Of a stretch of 64,000 nt of DNA, positions 12 to 7,877 are shown piece by piece. Source of the DNA: Acidobacteriota bacterium (lineage in GTDB: Bacteria; Acidobacteriota; UBA890; WLXD01); NCBI GenBank assembly GCA_965205505.1, contig CBDBHB010000009.1:1152001-1216000 (forward strand). Reading direction: 5' to 3'. Every line of letters starts with the position of its first letter. Positions within the stretch are counted from its first letter, which is position 1. The notes under the pieces were generated by a model, which was not told the origin of the DNA, searched no databases, and saw only the letters and a list, made by a program, of their open reading frames with translations. The translations under genes were made by a program, and so were the position numbers.

Positions 12-1184
12 GTGCTGATTCCCGTCCGGGCGTCGCTCGAGCACTTCTCGACCGTGTCCATCGGCCTGATGGGCGGGGCGTATTTCCTAGGGTTCACCTT
101 TGGCTGCTTGCGCGGTGGCGACTTGGTGCGCCGCGTGGGCCACGTTCGGGTGTTCGCCGCGATGACCGCTGTCGCTTCCGCCGCGCCGCTGCTGCACGGG
201 CTTTGGGCGGCCGTCTGGATGTGGGCGGTCTTGCGGGTCATTTCCGGCTACTGCTTTGCAGTGCTCTACGTGGTCATCGAGAGCTGGCTCAACGAGCATG
301 CAACCAACGAGACACGGGGCACGGTGTTCTCGGCCTATGTCCTGATCACCCTGACCGTTCTCGCCGTCGGACAGCAGATGCTGCTGCTCTACGATCCGAA
401 TCGCATGGCGCTGTTCGCGATCGCCTCGGCCTTGGTCTCGTTGGCCGCCGTACCGGTGGTGCTGTCGAGCTCCGCCACCCCGCAGCAACCCGAGACGATC
501 AAGGTCGACATCCCGCATCTATACCGGCTTTCCCCGGCCGGTGTCACAGGGTCCCTGGCCGCGGGACTCGCCGCCGGCACGTTCTGGTCGCTGGCGCCAG
601 TGTTCACTGCCGCGCAGTCCTCGGACGTGAATCTAGCGGCATGGTTCATGACCGCGAGCGTGCTCGGCGGTGCCGTCGGTCAGTGGCCCCTCGGCCGGTG
701 GTCTGATCGTGTCGATCGACGCCTGGTGCTGGCGGTGATCACGCTCGTGGCGGCCGCCACCGGCGCGGCTATGTGGCTCATGGCGCCGCAGCTATCGATG
801 CTGGGCATCATCGCGCTCGCAGCCGTCTGGGGCGCGGTGTCTTTCCCCATGTACTCGATATCGGCGGCCCATGCCAACGACTATGCCGAGCCCGACGAGT
901 ACGTCCCGGTCTCGAGCGGCCTGCTGCTGATGTACGGGATCGGAGCGGTCATCGGGCCGTTCATTGCCTCCGCAATGATGACCTGGCTGGCGCCAGGGGG
1001 CCTCTATCTGTTTACCGGGTTTGTCAACGTCATCTTCGGCGTCTATCTGGTGTTTCGTACGCTGCGGCGCGCGCCGCCGTCGGAGCGAGCCCCGTTTACC
1101 GATGCCCTGGCGTCGGTGCAGACGGCCTCGAGCGTGTACGAAGAAGAGCTGTGCGACGAGGAGTTGGGCGAAGCGGAGTCATGA
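12..1184 (+). CDS. MFS transporter (YcaD-like), 5' end probably outside the window
   Basis: Many hydrophobic helices; MFS loop motifs (VRRVGHVR, GRWSDRVDRR, ESWLNE); frame runs to the window edge. Confidence 0.85.
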   Translation: MLIPVRASLEHFSTVSIGLMGGAYFLGFTFGCLRGGDLVRRVGHVRVFAAMTAVASAAPLLHGLWAAVWMWAVLRVISGYCFAVLYVVIESWLNEHATNETRGTVFSAYVLITLTVLAVGQQMLLLYDPNRMALFAIASALVSLAAVPVVLSSSATPQQPETIKVDIPHLYRLSPAGVTGSLAAGLAAGTFWSLAPVFTAAQSSDVNLAAWFMTASVLGGAVGQWPLGRWSDRVDRRLVLAVITLVAAATGAAMWLMAPQLSMLGIIALAAVWGAVSFPMYSISAAHANDYAEPDEYVPVSSGLLLMYGIGAVIGPFIASAMMTWLAPGGLYLFTGFVNVIFGVYLVFRTLRRAPPSERAPFTDALASVQTASSVYEEELCDEELGEAES

Positions 1185-1212
1185 GCCGGAATCCGCGCCC
1201 ACCGCGCGGCGC

Positions 1213-3513
1213 TCAGCGCTCGTTGCTGCCGAGCTCGAAAGAGCGCCGGGCCATCTCCTCGATCCGATCGGTGCTCTCGGTGATACGGATGAAACGGTCG
1301 GCGAGCACGTCATGAAAGATCTGCGTCTGTCCGCTGGTCGGCCAGTAGATCTCGAGGAGATCCACACTCGAGGCTGCTCCCAGACCGACCTCGGCACGCA
1401 GCGGGTTGGCGCCGAAGCTGCTGCCGCTGCCTACGTGTCGGTAGATTGAGCGTCGGAGGCCGTCTGACTCGACCTCGAGGCGAATGCGTGCACCGATTGC
1501 GGCGCGGTTCGATTGCGTGCCGACGAGCTTGATGGCGATCCAGTGGTTGCCGAAGCCGGGATTCTCGTACAGGGCGTTGAAGTAGGCGTCCTGCGGATAG
1601 AAGCCGCCGAGTTGCTCGAAGACATCCTGATCACCATCGTTGTCGATATCGGCGAAGGCGACCGCGTGGCCCTTGGCGAGGTGGCCAAAGCCACCTGCGT
1701 AGGTGACGTTTGTGAAGCGCTCTCCGCCGACGCTCCTGTACATCACGTTCGGCAGCAGAGCCTCGTAGCCCGGATAGCCGGTGCCGAGGAAGTAGTCGAG
1801 GTAGCCGTCGTTGTCGAGATCGCCGAAGTTGGAGCCCATCGGCAACGTTGCTTGGCCGATACCGTATTGCACTGCCACCTCGCGGAAGCCGCCTTGGCCG
1901 TCGCCGAGATAGAGGCGGGGAATCTTGGTGGTACGAGCTTCGTCCATCACGCTTGCCGCCGCCGGGGCGACGCGCGGCCCCCGGTGCTCGTCCGGGACCC
2001 CGTAGTTGTTCACCAGCAAGTCGAGCGCGCCGTCGTTATCGACGTCCCAGAACCACGTCGAGAATCCGGACGTCGGTGCTACAACCCCGACTTCGGGCGC
2101 CACGTCGGTGAACGTGCCGTCGCGGTTGTTGCGGTAAAGCCGGTTGTCGCCGTCCAGGTTCGATACGTAGAGGTCCGCAAAGCGGTCGCCATCGTAGTCG
2201 CCCCACGCGACGCCCTTGGCGCGCCGGAAGTTGCGCACGCCGGCGTTGTCGGCGACGTCGGTGAATGTGCCGTTTCCGTTGTTGCGGAACAGCTGTGATG
2301 GGCTTATCTGAGCGACGCTCGACTCGTTGCCCACGAACAGATCGAGGTCGCCGTCGTTGTCATAGTCGGCCCACCCCGCAGTCTGTGTCGGATAGTCAAC
2401 GGCCGCCAGGCCGGCCTCGAAGGTCACGTCGGTGAAGGTCAGATCGCCGTTGTTGCGCAGCAACGAGTTCGGCATGCGTCCGTCGGCTTCCAGCCAGGCA
2501 CCGCGCAGCACTAGGACGTCGAGGTCGCCGTCGTTGTCGTAGTCCGCTTGGTTGATATTGAGCCCGCCGAAGATACCTGCGAGGTTTGCAGCTTCGGTGA
2601 GCTCGACGAACGCACCGTCGCCCTGGTTGCGGAAGAAACGGAGCTGACCGTTGGAGTCCAGCGTCGAGGACACGACGTCGAGGTAGCCGTCGTTGTCGAA
2701 GTCGTCGACGATGGCGCCTCCGGCGTGGTCATAGCTGTCGAGCCGGGCCGCTGCGGCGACATTCTCGAAGCTCGGGAAGCCCTCATTCCCTTCGAATACG
2801 GTCGGGCTGAATGCCAATCCCTCGGGAACGCCGCCTGGATAGCGGCCAAGCTGCATGTACGCGATGTTGGCGAGCCACTTGGCGGTGAGATATAGCGCAT
2901 GTTGCGGCGGGATGTTCCGCAGCAGCCGCACCAGATGGCCCAGCGCCGCGTCGGCCGGCTCGACCTCTCGATGCGCTCCGGATGGCCCGGCCACGAGAAC
3001 GCAGCCGTTGTCGATACGTAGATCCACACAATTGGCCGTCATCGCCTCGCGTAGATACCCGACTGCTAGCCAGAAGTCGATGTTCGGTCCTACCGAAGCC
3101 CGTTCTGGGCCAGACAGGCCCGGGATCGACTCGAGCACCTGCTCGAGACGTTCGATTCCGCCTTGAACACCGATGCGGAGCTCAAACGCACCGAGCCTGC
3201 TGAGCCTTGCCGCTCGCTCGAGCGGCGAGGAGCCGGCAGCAGTTGCAGCGAGCTCCCTCCGTAGCCTTTCGACGTCTGCCGCTTCCTGGAAGGCGAGGGG
3301 CTTCGAGCGGCCGATTTCCGCCAGCAACGCCACCATCCTGGCGTGGCCAGAGGAGACCGTCTGCTGTTGAGCAGCCAAAGCGTTGACGACCCACCCGCTG
3401 CCTTCAACGTGGCTCGCCGCGTTTGGCGGGGGCTGAACGGGCGGTTCGGCGAGCCCAGCAACCATGGGGCTTCCGGCCAACAGCAGCAATAGCGCCAAGC
3501 GGAATCGGGACAT
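1213..3513 (-). CDS. CRTAC1-family FG-GAP repeat / ASPIC-UnbV secreted protein
   Basis: Signal peptide; repeated DxDNDGDLD motifs; C-terminal NRAAIGARI...GSSFG ASPIC/UnbV pattern. Confidence 0.85.
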   Translation of the reverse strand: MSRFRLALLLLLAGSPMVAGLAEPPVQPPPNAASHVEGSGWVVNALAAQQQTVSSGHARMVALLAEIGRSKPLAFQEAADVERLRRELAATAAGSSPLERAARLSRLGAFELRIGVQGGIERLEQVLESIPGLSGPERASVGPNIDFWLAVGYLREAMTANCVDLRIDNGCVLVAGPSGAHREVEPADAALGHLVRLLRNIPPQHALYLTAKWLANIAYMQLGRYPGGVPEGLAFSPTVFEGNEGFPSFENVAAAARLDSYDHAGGAIVDDFDNDGYLDVVSSTLDSNGQLRFFRNQGDGAFVELTEAANLAGIFGGLNINQADYDNDGDLDVLVLRGAWLEADGRMPNSLLRNNGDLTFTDVTFEAGLAAVDYPTQTAGWADYDNDGDLDLFVGNESSVAQISPSQLFRNNGNGTFTDVADNAGVRNFRRAKGVAWGDYDGDRFADLYVSNLDGDNRLYRNNRDGTFTDVAPEVGVVAPTSGFSTWFWDVDNDGALDLLVNNYGVPDEHRGPRVAPAAASVMDEARTTKIPRLYLGDGQGGFREVAVQYGIGQATLPMGSNFGDLDNDGYLDYFLGTGYPGYEALLPNVMYRSVGGERFTNVTYAGGFGHLAKGHAVAFADIDNDGDQDVFEQLGGFYPQDAYFNALYENPGFGNHWIAIKLVGTQSNRAAIGARIRLEVESDGLRRSIYRHVGSGSSFGANPLRAEVGLGAASSVDLLEIYWPTSGQTQIFHDVLADRFIRITESTDRIEEMARRSFELGSNER

Positions 3514-3583
3514 GGCGCGATTCTAAGCGACAACAAGGCGGCTGTCGGCCTGTCCTGGTTCTGTTCCCAGTCGCTTCCTACCG

Positions 3584-4309
3584 TCAGCTGAACTCGAACG
3601 TCACGGTCGTGCGTCCGCCGGAGATCACGATCTCCCGGGTAAGCGTGCCGAGCGCTTCGTGCCGCGCCTCGATGACGTATGACCCATCCGGGATCTGGTC
3701 GATCGTGAAGTTCCCGTCGTCGTCGGTAGTGGCATGGTACGGATGGCCGAACACGCTCAGGAACGCCGTCATCCACGGATGCACGTCGCAACGAATCGGA
3801 ATTCCGAGCTCCGGGGTGTCGAAGACGCGCCGCGTCTCCAGGCCTTGAATCGGCTGGCCGACGTTGAATTCGGGGCTGGCTGTCGGTCGCACGTGGATGC
3901 TGTGCAACGTCGGGTCGCTATTGCGAAACACCACCGTCTGACCCACGGTGGCCCGCAGCACGTGGGGCGTGTAAACGCACCCCTTCTGATCGAACACGAC
4001 CTCCGTATTGCCGCCGCCGCCGCGGGCATCACGCAGATAGACGACGACGTCGCGAAGTCCGCCCGAATCGCCGACATCTACCGGGCGGAGCATCATTGCT
4101 TCGGAGTGTTGCGACGAACAGTACGGCTCGGCCGCCAACGCCGCCGCCGTCGGTTCGGGCGCTACGCCGGTGAATGCTATGTGCCCCGCGACAGAGCCTT
4201 GCGCCGGCGGCTCGACCGATCCGATTCCCTTTGCCGGCTTCGACAGCAACGCAGCGCCGACGAACACGAGCACCGCCGCAAACAGTACGAATTTTCGCGA
4301 AGCACCCAT
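3584..4309 (-). CDS. Exported cupredoxin-like / carboxypeptidase-regulatory-like domain protein
   Basis: Signal peptide; DQKGCVYTPH, NSDPTLH and CDVHPWM (type-1 copper-like His/Cys/His/Met). ATG at 4309 chosen as start. Confidence 0.75.
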   Translation of the reverse strand: MGASRKFVLFAAVLVFVGAALLSKPAKGIGSVEPPAQGSVAGHIAFTGVAPEPTAAALAAEPYCSSQHSEAMMLRPVDVGDSGGLRDVVVYLRDARGGGGNTEVVFDQKGCVYTPHVLRATVGQTVVFRNSDPTLHSIHVRPTASPEFNVGQPIQGLETRRVFDTPELGIPIRCDVHPWMTAFLSVFGHPYHATTDDDGNFTIDQIPDGSYVIEARHEALGTLTREIVISGGRTTVTFEFS

Positions 4310-4341
4310 GCACAAGCCTACGAACGCTGCCGAGAGCGGCC

Positions 4342-5451
4342 CTACCAGCCGTCGAAAAAACCGCCATCGAACCAATCCCACAGCACGTACATTAGCAACT
4401 GCGTGCTTCGTGTGTGCGAGTTGGTCAGCTGTAGGCGAACGCCGACGTTGAGTAGTATGTGCTGGCGCTGATTCAGCGACATCTGCAGCTGCGGCACCAA
4501 GCTCCAGTCGACCCTGGCGCCGTCCGTCAATGCGACATCGCCGAGCACTTCGACCATTGGCGACCAGGTCCGTCCGAAATCGGCTTGGCTCCAGCTCCCA
4601 CCGACCACCGCTCGCCAGAGCGCCTCGTGGGACACCTTTTCGCGATCGGTGGAGAGCTCCACAGCCCCGAAAAGCTGCAGAAACAGATTGTTTGGCAGGA
4701 TCTGGCCGTAGGCGACGAAGGGCTCGAATCTCGCGACACCGGTGCCGAGACCCTGTTCTGTGCTGCCGGTGGGCAGGATCACCTCGCCGCCGACCGCCGC
4801 GATGGATCCGCTTTCGACGCTATGGTGAACTGTGTGCTTCACCGCGACGGCGATATCTCCCACACCGATGTTGCCCCAGCCGGCCTTGCCCGAGAGCTCG
4901 CGGGCGCCGAATGGCACGATGACCTCCCACATGCTGCGCGGTCCGAAGCGCTTCTCGTAGGTGATCTCGTTGAGCACGCCGCCGGCGCCGCTCGTGTTGA
5001 CGCCGAGCGTATAGACGGCCTCGTCCTCCGGAAACGCTTTCTCCGTAACCAGGGCGCGGGGTAGATTGAGCTCCCCACGCGGCCAGCGCTTGTCGGTGCA
5101 GAAGGTGCGCAGGTGATCCATGATCAGCTGCAGCTGCTGCATCGAGAAGGCCTCACCGAAGGCGGGCATGCTCGAGCTGAAGCCGCGCGACGGGCCGCCC
5201 TGATGGCTCACCGTGATCCAGTCGGCGTCGGGCTCGCGCGCGCCGAAGGAGCAGTCGGTAAAGTCGGGCAGGGGGTCGGTGAAAGCGACCTTCTCCAGAT
5301 CAACGCCACGACCGTCAGGCGCGTGACAGCTCGCGCAACCGATCTCGTAGAGCCCCCTTGGGGTCGTCGGGTACTGCGGTCCCTGCGCCACGGCAACCTG
5401 GGGCAACCCGAAGATCACGACCAGGAGGAATACGGCGCGTACGATCGTCAC
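4342..5451 (-). CDS. Monoheme cytochrome c fused to an outer-membrane beta-barrel (MetA-pathway/transporter-like)
   Basis: GTG start with AGGAG RBS; signal peptide; CASCH heme motif plus distal MPAF; C-terminal amphipathic strands (GVGDIAVAVKH, LPTGS) ending WDWFDGGFFDGW. Confidence 0.75.
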   Translation of the reverse strand: MTIVRAVFLLVVIFGLPQVAVAQGPQYPTTPRGLYEIGCASCHAPDGRGVDLEKVAFTDPLPDFTDCSFGAREPDADWITVSHQGGPSRGFSSSMPAFGEAFSMQQLQLIMDHLRTFCTDKRWPRGELNLPRALVTEKAFPEDEAVYTLGVNTSGAGGVLNEITYEKRFGPRSMWEVIVPFGARELSGKAGWGNIGVGDIAVAVKHTVHHSVESGSIAAVGGEVILPTGSTEQGLGTGVARFEPFVAYGQILPNNLFLQLFGAVELSTDREKVSHEALWRAVVGGSWSQADFGRTWSPMVEVLGDVALTDGARVDWSLVPQLQMSLNQRQHILLNVGVRLQLTNSHTRSTQLLMYVLWDWFDGGFFDGW

Positions 5452-5657
5452 GCTGGTACGCTCCTGCAAAGGCGCAATCGTACTCCATTCTCTGGCGAGC
5501 ATGGTGCGAATCGCGTCGGGCTGGCGAGGACCCTTTCGGCCGCTGTTCGGACGTCTGCAGCTGGTCGATGTAGGCGGGCGTTTGCTGCGCCAGTGTAGGG
5601 TTCTGACCGACCGTGGCGAGTGCCGGGCGCGTTTGCCCTGAGCGGAGCGAGGGAACG

Positions 5658-7877
5658 TTGAGCACGAGCGATTTCATTGAGGTTCGCAATCTCAGGATCG
5701 CCAAGTCGCTGTACGAGTTGGTTCGATCCGAGATCGCCCCTGGTACGGGGCTGGATCCTGACGAGGTGTGGAACGCTCTCGGTCGGATCGTGGAGGATCT
5801 CGGACCGGAGAATCGCCGGTTGCTGGAGGCCCGTGTGCTACACGAGCAACAGCTCGACAGCTGGTATCAGGAACGATTCGGGCAGGCCATCGACGAGAAC
5901 GAGTACCGGGGTTTCCTCCTGTCAACGGGCTACCTGCTTCCCGAGGGCGAAGATTTCCAGATCACCACCGAGAACGTCGATCCGGAGATCACGTCCATCG
6001 CCGGCCCGCAGCTCGTCGTGCCGGTGGACAACGCTCGATATGCCTTGAATGCGGCCAACGCGCGCTGGGGAAGCCTCTACGATGCGCTCTACGGGACCGA
6101 CGTGATCCCCGAGGACGACGGGGCGACGAAAGGGGCCGCGTACAACGTCGTTAGAGGCTCCCGAGTCGTCGCGTGGGCTGAGCAGTTCCTCGATGACGTA
6201 GCTCCGCTTGCTCAGGGCAGCCACTCTGATGCCGTTGGATTTCAGCTCGAAGACGGTGAGGACGGCAAGCGTCTGATCGTTCGGCTCGCCAACGGGCAGC
6301 AGACGCGGCTCGCAGAAGAGTCGGAGCTGGTCGGCTACACGGAGGAGGCGGGCACCCTCAGCGCGGTACTGCTCAGCAACAATGGACTGCACATTGAAAT
6401 CCGCATCGATCGCAGTCATCCGGTCGGGGCAGCGCATCCGGCGGGCGTGAGCGACGTGCAGCTGGAGAGCGCCGTCACGACAATCCAGGACTGCGAGGAT
6501 TCCGTTTCCGCTGTCGATGCCGCCGACAAGGTGGTCGTCTATCGCAACTGGCTCGGGATCATGAAGGGCTCCCTCGAGGCATCCTTCACGAAAAACCTCG
6601 AGCCGGTCGCCCGCCGGCTCAATCCCGATCGAACGTATCGAGCTGCTCGCGGCGGAACGCTTACCCTGCCTGGGCGCAGCCTGTTGTTGGTGCGAAACGT
6701 CGGTATCCACATGTACACGGACGCCGTGACCACCGCGGCGCGGGAGGCGATCCCCGAAGGGTTCCTCGACGCGTTGATCACCGCCTTCGCTGCCGTTCAC
6801 GATGTGAACGGAAACAGCTCAGTGCGCAACAGCCGCAGCGGCAGCATCTACATCGTCAAGCCGAAGCTCCACGGGCCCGAGGAGGTGGCCGCCACGGTCG
6901 AGCTGTTCGATCGTGTCGAGCAGACGCTAGGGTTGCCGCGTACGACGATCAAGATCGGGATCATGGACGAGGAGCGGCGCACCACGGTGAATCTCAAGGA
7001 GTGCATTCGCGCCGCCAAGGATCGCGTGGTCTTCATCAACACGGGATTCCTGGACCGCACCGGTGACGAGATCCACACCAGCATGCAGGCCGGGCCGATG
7101 ATCCCCAAGCCGGAGATCAGGAGCAGCCCATGAATGCTGGCCTACGAGGATTGGAACGTCGACGTGGGCATCGAGTGTGGCCTCCCTGGGCGGGGTCAGA
7201 TCGGCAAGGGCATGTGGGCGATGCCCGACCTGATGAGTGCGATGGTCGAGACCAAGGGCGAGCACCCCGCCTCGGGCGCCAGCACCGCATGGGTACCCTC
7301 GCCGACCGCCGCGACGCTGCATGCCCTGCACTACCACCGAGTGAACGTACGGGAGGTACAAGCGGCGACGGCCGCCCGCGCCCGGGCCCATCTGGGCGCC
7401 ATCCTCACGCCACCGCTTCTCGGTAGCCACCGACTGACCGACGAGGAGATCCAGCAGGAGCTGGACAACAACGCACAGGGCATTCTCGGCTACGTCGTTC
7501 GCTGGGTCGGACAGGGGATCGGCTGTTCCAAGGTGCCGGATATTGGTGACGTGGGTCTGATGGAGGATCGCGCCACCCTCCGAATCTCTAGCCAGCACAT
7601 CGCCAATTGGCTCCACCATGCGGTGGTTACCCAGGACCAGGTGGTCGCCACTCTCGAAAAGATGGCCGCGGTCGTCGACCGCCAGAATGCCGAGGATCCG
7701 GCATACACGCCGATGGTCCCGGAGCTCGAAGCCAGCGTGGAGTTCCAGGCGGCGCTGGATTTGGTCCTGAAGGGTCGGGACGAGCCCAACGGCTACACCG
7801 AGACCGTGCTCCATTCGCGCCGCCGAGAGTTGAAGGCCCGGAGCGGAGCGCATAGCGCGGCGGGTTCGACGTCATGA
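5658..7877 (+). pseudogene. glcB: Malate synthase G interrupted by an in-frame TGA at 7131-7133
   Basis: [44 protein letters not shown] and [13 protein letters not shown] motifs. ORFs 5613-7133 and 7134-7877 are in the same frame, and the TGA falls where Trp is normally found (W-x-x-AYEDWNV). Confidence 0.9.

Follow-up and report, generated by a model that had tools for sequence, protein, structure and literature searches.

A cytochrome c fused to a predicted 12-strand outer-membrane barrel, and the gene of its putative type-1 copper partner, in an Acidobacteriota genome

The window analysed here is a stretch of 64,000 nucleotides from an Acidobacteriota bacterium (assembly GCA_965205505.1, contig CBDBHB010000009.1, positions 1,152,001 to 1,216,000 of the forward strand), in which three co-oriented open reading frames lie on the minus strand: A (5502/5451..4342), B (4309..3584) and C (3513..1213). 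Gene A encodes a monohaem cytochrome c joined in one polypeptide to a predicted 12-strand outer-membrane barrel, and gene B encodes a predicted type-1 copper protein. A signal peptide, a class I haem domain (CASCH...MPAF) and a small barrel in a single protein, followed 32 nucleotides later on the same strand by an exported protein with the motif CDVHPWM, had been recognized in an earlier note made from the sequence alone. This description is borne out by the reading frames, by the invariance of the cofactor ligands, by the 12-strand model of A and, for B, by a cupredoxin fold with a full set of ligands; the signal peptide was judged by eye. The open reading frame of A extends to 5502 and closes with a TAG codon at 4344-4342, and we take the GTG at 5451 as its likely start because a GGAG lies 9 nucleotides upstream and because the database twin P0001 (369 residues, 99% identity) begins at the same position and so matches in length. 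The stretch marked in the earlier note, 3584-5451, thus reaches from this GTG to the end of B. No terminator-like or promoter-like site was found in the 32-nucleotide spacer between A and B, and the sole promoter-like site detected within 1000-5800 falls in the 70-nucleotide gap between B and C. Existing database labels are 'c-type cytochrome' for A and 'carboxypeptidase regulatory-like domain protein' for B, and no NCBIfam profile scores above its cut-off for A, for B or for the pentahaem cytochrome described below.

The hydrophobic leader of A ends AVA/QG and is followed by CASCH (residues 39–43) and MPAF (residues 95–98). Among 36 aligned members of the A family C39, C42, H43 and M95 are invariant, as is an additional cysteine pair, C67 and C118; Met95 is presumed to be the sixth haem ligand, a role transferred from class I cytochromes c. 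An AlphaFold2 model of the whole chain (predicted local distance difference test, pLDDT, 84.6; predicted template modelling score, pTM, 0.79) places helices at residues 31–117, and a helical domain of about 90 residues with CXXCH and a distal methionine is that of a class I cytochrome c. At the level of profiles the match is marginal for this copy, with PF13442 scoring 25.9 bits (E 1.3e-5), just below the cut-off of 27. Four of seven relatives scanned do pass (29.2–39.5 bits), including the paralogue in the same genome at 30.5, while the other three fall below, among them P0005 at 25.7 and P0101 at 20.7 bits. Searches against the sequences of solved structures give weak cytochrome matches at best (E 0.039).

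The earlier note had made its reading depend on whether the C-terminal part of A folds as a membrane barrel, and in the model it does. DSSP assigns 13 strand segments between residues 144 and 359, which we read as 12 strands with strand 4 of the model kinked at G198-D199. Foldseek places FapF first (E 4e-9), followed by the COG4313 channel 4rl8 (E 6e-7) and then NanC and KdgM, and VIA-align gives a similar picture: FapF at Z 23.1 (220 residues aligned, root-mean-square deviation, rmsd, 2.5), 4rl8_C at Z 22.0 (218 of 268 residues, rmsd 2.8), KdgM at Z 19.3, NanC at Z 18.9, and autotransporter and intimin barrels at about 16. The copper transporter PcoB (7pge) is also among the structural matches, at Z 13.9. 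At the level of fold, these matches place A in the COG4313/FapF group of barrels. PF13557 (Phenol_MetA_deg, cut-off 22 bits) does not match the copy in the window at E <= 0.1 and scores 20.5 bits, below cut-off, for the in-genome paralogue, yet it is above cut-off in six of the seven relatives (24.2–43.2 bits). A is a divergent branch of the PF13557/COG4313 superfamily.

Between the two domains lies a linker, WPRGELNLPRALVTEKAFPEDE (residues 123–144), in which nearly every position is invariant in the 36-sequence alignment. In the 4rl8 alignment the model of A from residue 135 pairs with the 4rl8 chain from residue 2, so that the end of the linker overlies the lumen-filling N-terminal segment of Pput2725, and a position of the linker in the lumen of the A barrel may be inferred from the model. 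According to the available excerpts of the description of Pput2725 (4rl8), its N-terminal 14 residues occupy the barrel lumen (PMC4493636). Mean column identity in the A family is 55% across phyla (36 sequences), which is unusually high for an outer-membrane protein, and many polar residues of the barrel are invariant. These include E144, E166, R168, E176, K205, E223, Q321 and Q323, which lie on the less hydrophobic face of the strands by a heuristic reading of which side faces in and which faces out. By the usual topology, the invariant groups G293-R294, P298-M299 and R329-Q330-H331 and the C-terminal WDWFDG fall in periplasmic turns, so that invariant residues would be concentrated in the linker, at lumen-facing strand positions and in those turns; invariant residues are found in extracellular loop 3 as well (LPTG, E243). 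Both termini of A would be periplasmic by the same topology, and the invariant turns would offer a docking site for a cytochrome domain on that side.

The attachment of haem to c-type cytochromes takes place in the periplasm. For this reason, and because a folded holo-domain of 90 residues is too big for a 12-strand barrel, we place the cytochrome domain of A on the periplasmic side. The chain ends in a tail with the family consensus LWDWFDGGxFDGW, and an aromatic C-terminal residue is usual in outer-membrane barrels, where it is linked to membrane insertion. Database searches turned up no close relative of A that lacks the barrel or lacks the cytochrome, although a cytochrome-less form may exist. 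The short matches whose alignment opens at profile position 97 have the methionine of MPAF as their first residue, and we read them as truncated gene calls rather than separate barrels.

The model of B is confident (pLDDT 91.7), and a relative, P0121 (241 residues), is 94% identical to it. Its residues 101–188 superimpose on plastocyanin 7pcy with Z 11.4 (rmsd 1.5 over 84 residues) and on amicyanin and the Nitrosopumilus purple cupredoxin 5fc9 with Z of about 10.5; Foldseek matches to cupredoxins range from E 3e-6 to 1e-4, while a sequence search of solved structures reaches only 5fc9 at E 0.11. H136, C174, H177 and M180 make up the full type-1 copper ligand set within this cupredoxin beta-sandwich and are invariant in all 33 aligned B sequences, in which a second cysteine pair, C64 and C111, is also conserved. 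The remainder of the protein resembles a different sandwich: PF13620 matches with 31.9 bits over profile positions 27–79 only, the C-terminal two-thirds of the profile, and model residues 39–241 align with domain II of carboxypeptidase D (1qmu; Z 11.2, 76 residues aligned). As modelled, B is a type-1 cupredoxin nested in a transthyretin-like sandwich, with a predicted copper site. Many B relatives that are not linked to A have a lipoprotein-type N-terminus (…ACGGG), whereas the A-linked proteins, that of the window included, carry a plain hydrophobic N-terminal leader without a clear cleavage site.

Table 1. Features of genes A and B, in window positions; residue numbers are those of the respective precursors
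Feature	Positions	Strand	Basis
Gene A, 369-residue precursor: monohaem cytochrome c plus predicted 12-strand outer-membrane barrel	4342..5451	-	open reading frame, model; stop codon counted
A putative signal peptide, residues 1–22 (MTIVRAVFLLVVIFGLPQVAVA / QG)	5386..5451	-	judged by eye
A class I cytochrome c domain, residues ~30–120, with extra invariant Cys pair (C67, C118)	5092..5364	-	PF13442, model, alignment
A haem-binding motif CASCH (C39, C42, H43)	5323..5337	-	invariant in 36/36 aligned sequences
A Met95 of MPAF, presumed sixth haem ligand	5167..5169	-	invariant in alignment
A linker, residues 121–143 (KRWPRGELNLPRALVTEKAFPED), presumed in or at barrel lumen	5023..5091	-	conservation, 4rl8 alignment
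A predicted 12-strand beta-barrel, residues 144–359	4375..5022	-	model strands, structural matches
A C-terminal tail WFDGGFFDGW, aromatic last residue	4345..4374	-	sequence, alignment
A-B spacer, 32 nucleotides	4310..4341	-	A TAG stop to B ATG at 4309
Gene B, 241-residue exported protein, predicted type-1 copper	3584..4309	-	open reading frame, model; stop codon counted
B cupredoxin domain, residues ~101–188	3746..4009	-	7pcy and other structural matches
B His136, predicted first copper ligand (DPTLH)	3902..3904	-	invariant in 33/33
B predicted copper-ligand loop CDVHPWM, residues 174–180 (Cys174, His177, Met180)	3770..3790	-	invariant in 33/33
B C-terminal half of transthyretin-like (CarboxypepD_reg) sandwich, residues 189–241; N-terminal strands at residues ~36–95	3587..3745	-	PF13620, 1qmu

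A scan of one genome per species provides further insight into the company that A keeps. It yielded at least 582 pattern matches, and at least 567 of these were confirmed as relatives of A, which places the family in at least 567 species genomes. The best 80 loci, with crude gene calling, were kept, and they come from Acidobacteriota, Gemmatimonadota, Balneolota, Rhodothermota, Latescibacterota, Myxococcota, Pseudomonadota, Verrucomicrobiota and others. Going beyond the earlier note, we find that the usual partner of A at these loci is a pentahaem cytochrome of about 550 residues with five CXXCH motifs, which adjoins A in 64 of the 80 (61 downstream on the same strand, 3 divergent upstream), and that the cupredoxin is a minority alternative, present in 12 (11 downstream, 1 upstream). 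The two partners never occur together, which strengthens their reading as redox partners of A. Four loci have neither (L002, L003, L020 and L027), and in L003 the contig ends 589 nucleotides after A. The start of the pentahaem gene often overlaps the stop codon of A, and the cultured carriers Fodinibius sediminis DSM 21194 and Rhodohalobacter sp. 8-1 each have the pentahaem form. In the pentahaem protein (for example L011 7103-8743) the five CXXCH motifs lie in the first 260 residues and the C-terminal half comprises about 290 residues; a short stretch within that half, and no other part, resembles the pentahaem cytochrome c552 5ze8 (E 0.004), and there is weak similarity to domain II/IV of MtrC and MtrF.

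The earlier note had also made its reading depend on A and B being linked in other genomes, and besides the 12 loci above such linkage is seen among related genomes. In a set of 41 related genomes A was called present, at E <= 1e-20, in 17, and B adjoins it in 10 of them (G000, the genome of the window, with two pairs; G004, G011, G012, G013, G016, G019, G020, G024 and G039). The pentahaem gene adjoins A in two (G022 and G031) and neither partner does in five (G006; G007, with a fragment of A only; G009; G018, a fragmented assembly; and G030). The order of the two genes flips while their adjacency is kept: B lies upstream of A in G011, G012, G013, G019, G024 and L052, and in G016 (C31:41494-44135, locus L100) B-family genes stand on both sides in the order B-A-B. 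In G039 the A-like gene is just 29% identical to that of the window, yet B adjoins it. B-family genes as such are found in 35 of the 41 genomes; most carriers have more than one copy, and the majority of the copies lie away from A. In a quick tree of 82 A sequences with an unresolved backbone, the B-linked sequences fall into five groups, and the B label needs four changes, at least two of them forced by well-supported branches. None of 500 label shuffles gave a number as low, so the B-linked A sequences cluster. Positions of A that might be partner-specific were also looked for; just F102 and S173 separate B-linked from pentahaem-linked sequences, and these are too few, and confounded by relatedness, to be of use.

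The genome of the window (5.98 Mb, 96% complete) carries a second A-B pair at C9:21089-22926 (locus L093 8081-9966, minus strand), with 78% identity for A and 63% for B, and a search with one query found no pentahaem homologue in it. Three further full-length B paralogues lie elsewhere in this genome. One unlinked B paralogue, at C9:2510644-2511255 (locus L094 7618-8400, minus strand), directly follows a gene for a 967-residue protein with several cytochrome c domains and precedes the genes for haem a synthesis (CtaA and a UbiA-type CtaB), an arrangement that suggests a cupredoxin route to a terminal oxidase and is in keeping with an electron carrier of the respiratory chain. A second one comes after a glucose/sorbosone-dehydrogenase-like gene. 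From these contexts B-family proteins look like general periplasmic carriers. A further B paralogue, at C9:224755-225444 (locus L096), has one internal TAG stop and is possibly a pseudogene; its neighbours are rhodanese-domain and ZIP transporter genes.

Beyond A and its partner the surroundings are variable. When the open reading frames of the 80 loci were clustered, with two antisense artefact clusters set aside, no cluster other than A and its partner occurred in more than seven loci, and five further A-B loci differ in the genes that flank them (sortilin/BNR, FtsX, Calx-beta, aconitase X and amidohydrolase genes). Around the second A-B pair there is a convergent gene for a DUF5916/CBM9 protein, with helix-hairpin-helix and dioxygenase-like genes upstream. 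In the window, gene C (1213-3513, minus strand), 70 nucleotides downstream of B, encodes a 766-residue exported FG-GAP repeat/ASPIC-UnbV protein. We considered it as a third member of the unit and rejected it, as the 94%-identical relative L001 alone has it beside A-B again and the second pair lacks it. A few hundred bases downstream of two partnerless A genes (L002 7700-8224; L099, from G006, 4877-5776) there is a lipoprotein gene of the DUF4399 type with the motif GEGHYHLAVD, which might be a third kind of partner or might be unrelated. On the other strand of the window, malate synthase G (5613-7877, plus strand) is split into open reading frames of 506 and 247 residues by one in-frame TGA (7131-7133). 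The corresponding codon in L001 is Trp, and the TGA reflects a nonsense mutation, an error in sequencing or read-through at this codon.

The arrangement of A and B recalls the outer-membrane iron oxidase Cyc2, whose partner in Acidithiobacillus is the cupredoxin rusticyanin; rusticyanin is absent among the Foldseek and VIA-align matches listed for B, a list that does not rule out families outside it. In common with A, Cyc2, Cyc2PV-1 and Cyt572 are described in the passages available as single polypeptides with one CXXCH and a barrel, the cytochrome being expected at the periplasmic mouth (PMC8406198), and the layout of A, with a signal peptide and a single CXXCH N-terminal to an outer-membrane barrel, is that of Cyc2. 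The hallmarks given for Cyc2 in the same passages, however, are PxFAR[Q/K][T/Y] five residues before CXXCH, PXL four residues after it, and a 16-strand OprO/OprP-like porin (PMC8406198), and none of the three is present in A. Upstream of the haem motif A reads TTPRGLYEIG-CASCH (family consensus G..LYE.GCASCH) and downstream of it APDGRGV (consensus G.DG.G), the predicted barrel has 12 strands and its top matches are 12-strand barrels. Moreover, Cyc2 has a very short haem domain where that of A is a full class I domain with about 90 residues and a methionine ligand, and Cyc2 barrels are, in the excerpts at hand, poorly conserved whereas A is strongly conserved throughout. The suggestion of the earlier note that A is analogous to Cyc2 but distinct from it therefore stands. 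Cyc2 proteins are iron oxidases, and A would work like them by analogy alone.

Other systems share particular elements with the A-B pair. COG4313 members such as Pput2725, TcpY and SphA share the 12-strand barrel with A, and the stretch of A ahead of strand 1 aligns with their lumen-filling N-terminus; in the excerpts available they are stand-alone, cofactor-free proteins of 270–320 residues implicated in the uptake of hydrophobic molecules (PMC4493636); A differs in its haem domain, in its charged invariant interior and in nearly always having a redox partner gene. FapF (5o65), the best structural match, also combines a 12-strand barrel with an N-terminal plug element, but it secretes amyloid subunits from within a fap operon, has no haem and is 13% identical in sequence, and no fap genes are present here. 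MtrAB, MtoAB, PioAB and the Geobacter Pcc systems likewise encode an outer-membrane barrel together with one or more c-type cytochromes, although their barrels have 20–26 strands and sheathe a membrane-spanning decahaem wire, while A has one haem and a 12-strand barrel, which is too narrow to hold a cytochrome. The core of B has the fold of plastocyanin, amicyanin, pseudoazurin and 5fc9 (Z 10–11.4), and 5fc9 (CSFHPW) shares its short C-x2-H-x2-M loop; unlike these small blue copper proteins, B is nested in a transthyretin-like sandwich and has the invariant pair C64/C111. We found no characterised member of the B sub-family, and full-text literature searches found no paper on a cytochrome c fused to a COG4313 or other 12-strand barrel. 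The fusion was not found in the matched passages of a 2026 review of iron-oxidation proteins (PMC13741234), and a 2026 preprint on Acidobacteriota porin-cytochrome clusters describes, in the portions consulted, proteins with 8–13 haems and makes there no mention of fused, barrel, pentaheme or monoheme (10.64898/2026.05.27.727921).

On balance we favour, with modest confidence, the view that A and B form a self-contained two-gene outer-membrane redox cassette in which B does the job of the pentahaem cytochrome. The partner is taken to be an electron carrier, and the unit to be self-contained, because A nearly always adjoins a redox protein, either pentahaem or copper and never both, and because the gene order flips while adjacency is kept. 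In this model A would sit in the outer membrane by way of its 12-strand barrel with its His/Met-ligated haem c domain in the periplasm, and the near-invariant linker in the lumen would hold the haem domain at the periplasmic mouth of the barrel, much as the lumen is occupied in COG4313 channels. A small redox-active solute would reach the haem through or along the barrel and exchange one electron with it; ferrous iron is the most obvious candidate by analogy with Cyc2, with another reduced metal, a hydroquinone or an amphipathic redox compound equally open. B, as a periplasmic type-1 copper protein, would make contact with the haem domain of A and shuttle the electron between the haem and the respiratory chain, a role that in most other lineages the pentahaem cytochrome would fill. 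The His/Met haem and the type-1 copper site are typically high-potential centres, and because both cofactors here are of that kind we consider it more likely that an external donor is oxidised to feed aerobic respiration than that electrons are exported.

A single haem cannot bridge the outer membrane, and the barrel must therefore either deliver a substrate or merely anchor the cytochrome. If it is an anchor only, A would be a tethered periplasmic cytochrome c that, with B or the pentahaem protein, forms a path to, for example, a peroxidase, a reductase or an oxidase, and nothing would cross the outer membrane. The invariant linker and the charged lumen-facing residues do resemble a permanent plug, COG4313 pores with the N-terminus inserted are, in the excerpts available, nearly closed (PMC4493636), and B-family proteins act in other periplasmic contexts in the same genome. 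We nevertheless regard this alternative as rather improbable, since a lipid anchor or simple tether would be far cheaper than a barrel of 230 residues, the barrel has been kept at the identity noted above across phyla with no barrel-less or cytochrome-less close relative turning up, and invariant residues also occur in extracellular loop 3 (LPTG, E243). It is for these reasons, together with the invariant interior, that we prefer delivery of a substrate. What is delivered need not be an electron donor, however, and A could instead be a redox-gated uptake channel for an amphipathic or hydrophobic molecule, the haem sensing periplasmic redox state via B and moving the linker plug. Characterised members of the COG4313/Phenol_MetA_deg superfamily, to which the barrel does belong, import trichlorophenol or sphingosine, and the linker of A aligns with the lumen-occupying N-terminus of Pput2725; but no catabolic or transport genes accompany A-B in the loci examined, a near-constant redox partner, be it pentahaem or copper, fits electron flux better than sensing, and the lumen-like faces of the strands are, by the heuristic reading, charged and not hydrophobic. 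We accordingly give gated uptake little weight.

The match to PcoB and the predicted copper site of B would also be consistent with copper handling, in which A would serve as a PcoB-like copper pore, B would carry copper or oxidise Cu(I), and the haem would be an electron sink. FapF, COG4313 and the KdgM/NanC porins all score far higher than PcoB, though, the 64 A genes with a pentahaem partner pair without a copper protein, the site in B is that of a classical buried type-1 electron-transfer centre, and no cop, pco or cus genes were found near A-B, so that this explanation appears very improbable. Less credible again is that A is a divergent Cyc2 iron oxidase with B as its rusticyanin: the gross layout is the same, with a signal peptide, one CXXCH, a barrel and a cupredoxin gene alongside, but against it stand the two missing Cyc2 motifs, the 12 strands of FapF/COG4313 type and the full class I domain of about 90 residues.

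Several observations nonetheless weigh against a two-gene redox cassette as we propose it. One haem at one face of a membrane of about 4 nm needs a diffusible substrate, and the varying neighbour genes indicate none. If the lumen is filled by an invariant, salt-bridged linker, there might be no usable channel; in the excerpts available the plugged Pput2725 pore passed only glycine-sized solutes (PMC4493636). The hydrophobic N-terminus of B, if it is a short inner-membrane anchor, would keep B off the outer membrane, and a family that is multicopy and mostly unlinked to A speaks for a general carrier rather than a dedicated subunit. The argument from cofactor potential as to direction is weakened by the pentahaem partner elsewhere, which would normally be low-potential, and the clustering of the linkage is drawn from the quick tree with its unresolved backbone.

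The A-B pairing is uncharacterised but widespread, and probably passes electrons between the cell surface and respiration. As a wider and more tentative proposal, which we consider possible but not the likelier outcome, fused cytochrome-porins would have arisen independently a second time in the A family, with a 12-strand barrel of COG4313 type as the scaffold and with the pentahaem and copper proteins as interchangeable partners, and this would allow common heterotrophic phyla of soils, sediments and the sea (Acidobacteriota, Gemmatimonadota, Balneolota, Rhodothermota, Latescibacterota and Myxococcota) to harvest electrons from an external donor, for instance Fe(II), Mn(II) or reduced organic quinones. 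Surveys that look for iron oxidation or extracellular electron transfer lean on a few markers (Cyc2, MtoAB/PioAB, Mtr/Pcc), which the A cassette escapes, and if the proposal is true, lithotrophic or mixotrophic electron uptake would be far commoner than Cyc2- and Mto-based gene surveys show. The choice between a pentahaem and a copper protein is a natural experiment that marks the partner as an electron carrier and offers two systems for biochemistry. Should the barrel bring a substrate to the haem, A would represent a new minimal outer-membrane redox design, and if it only anchors, a new way to place a cytochrome in the cell envelope.

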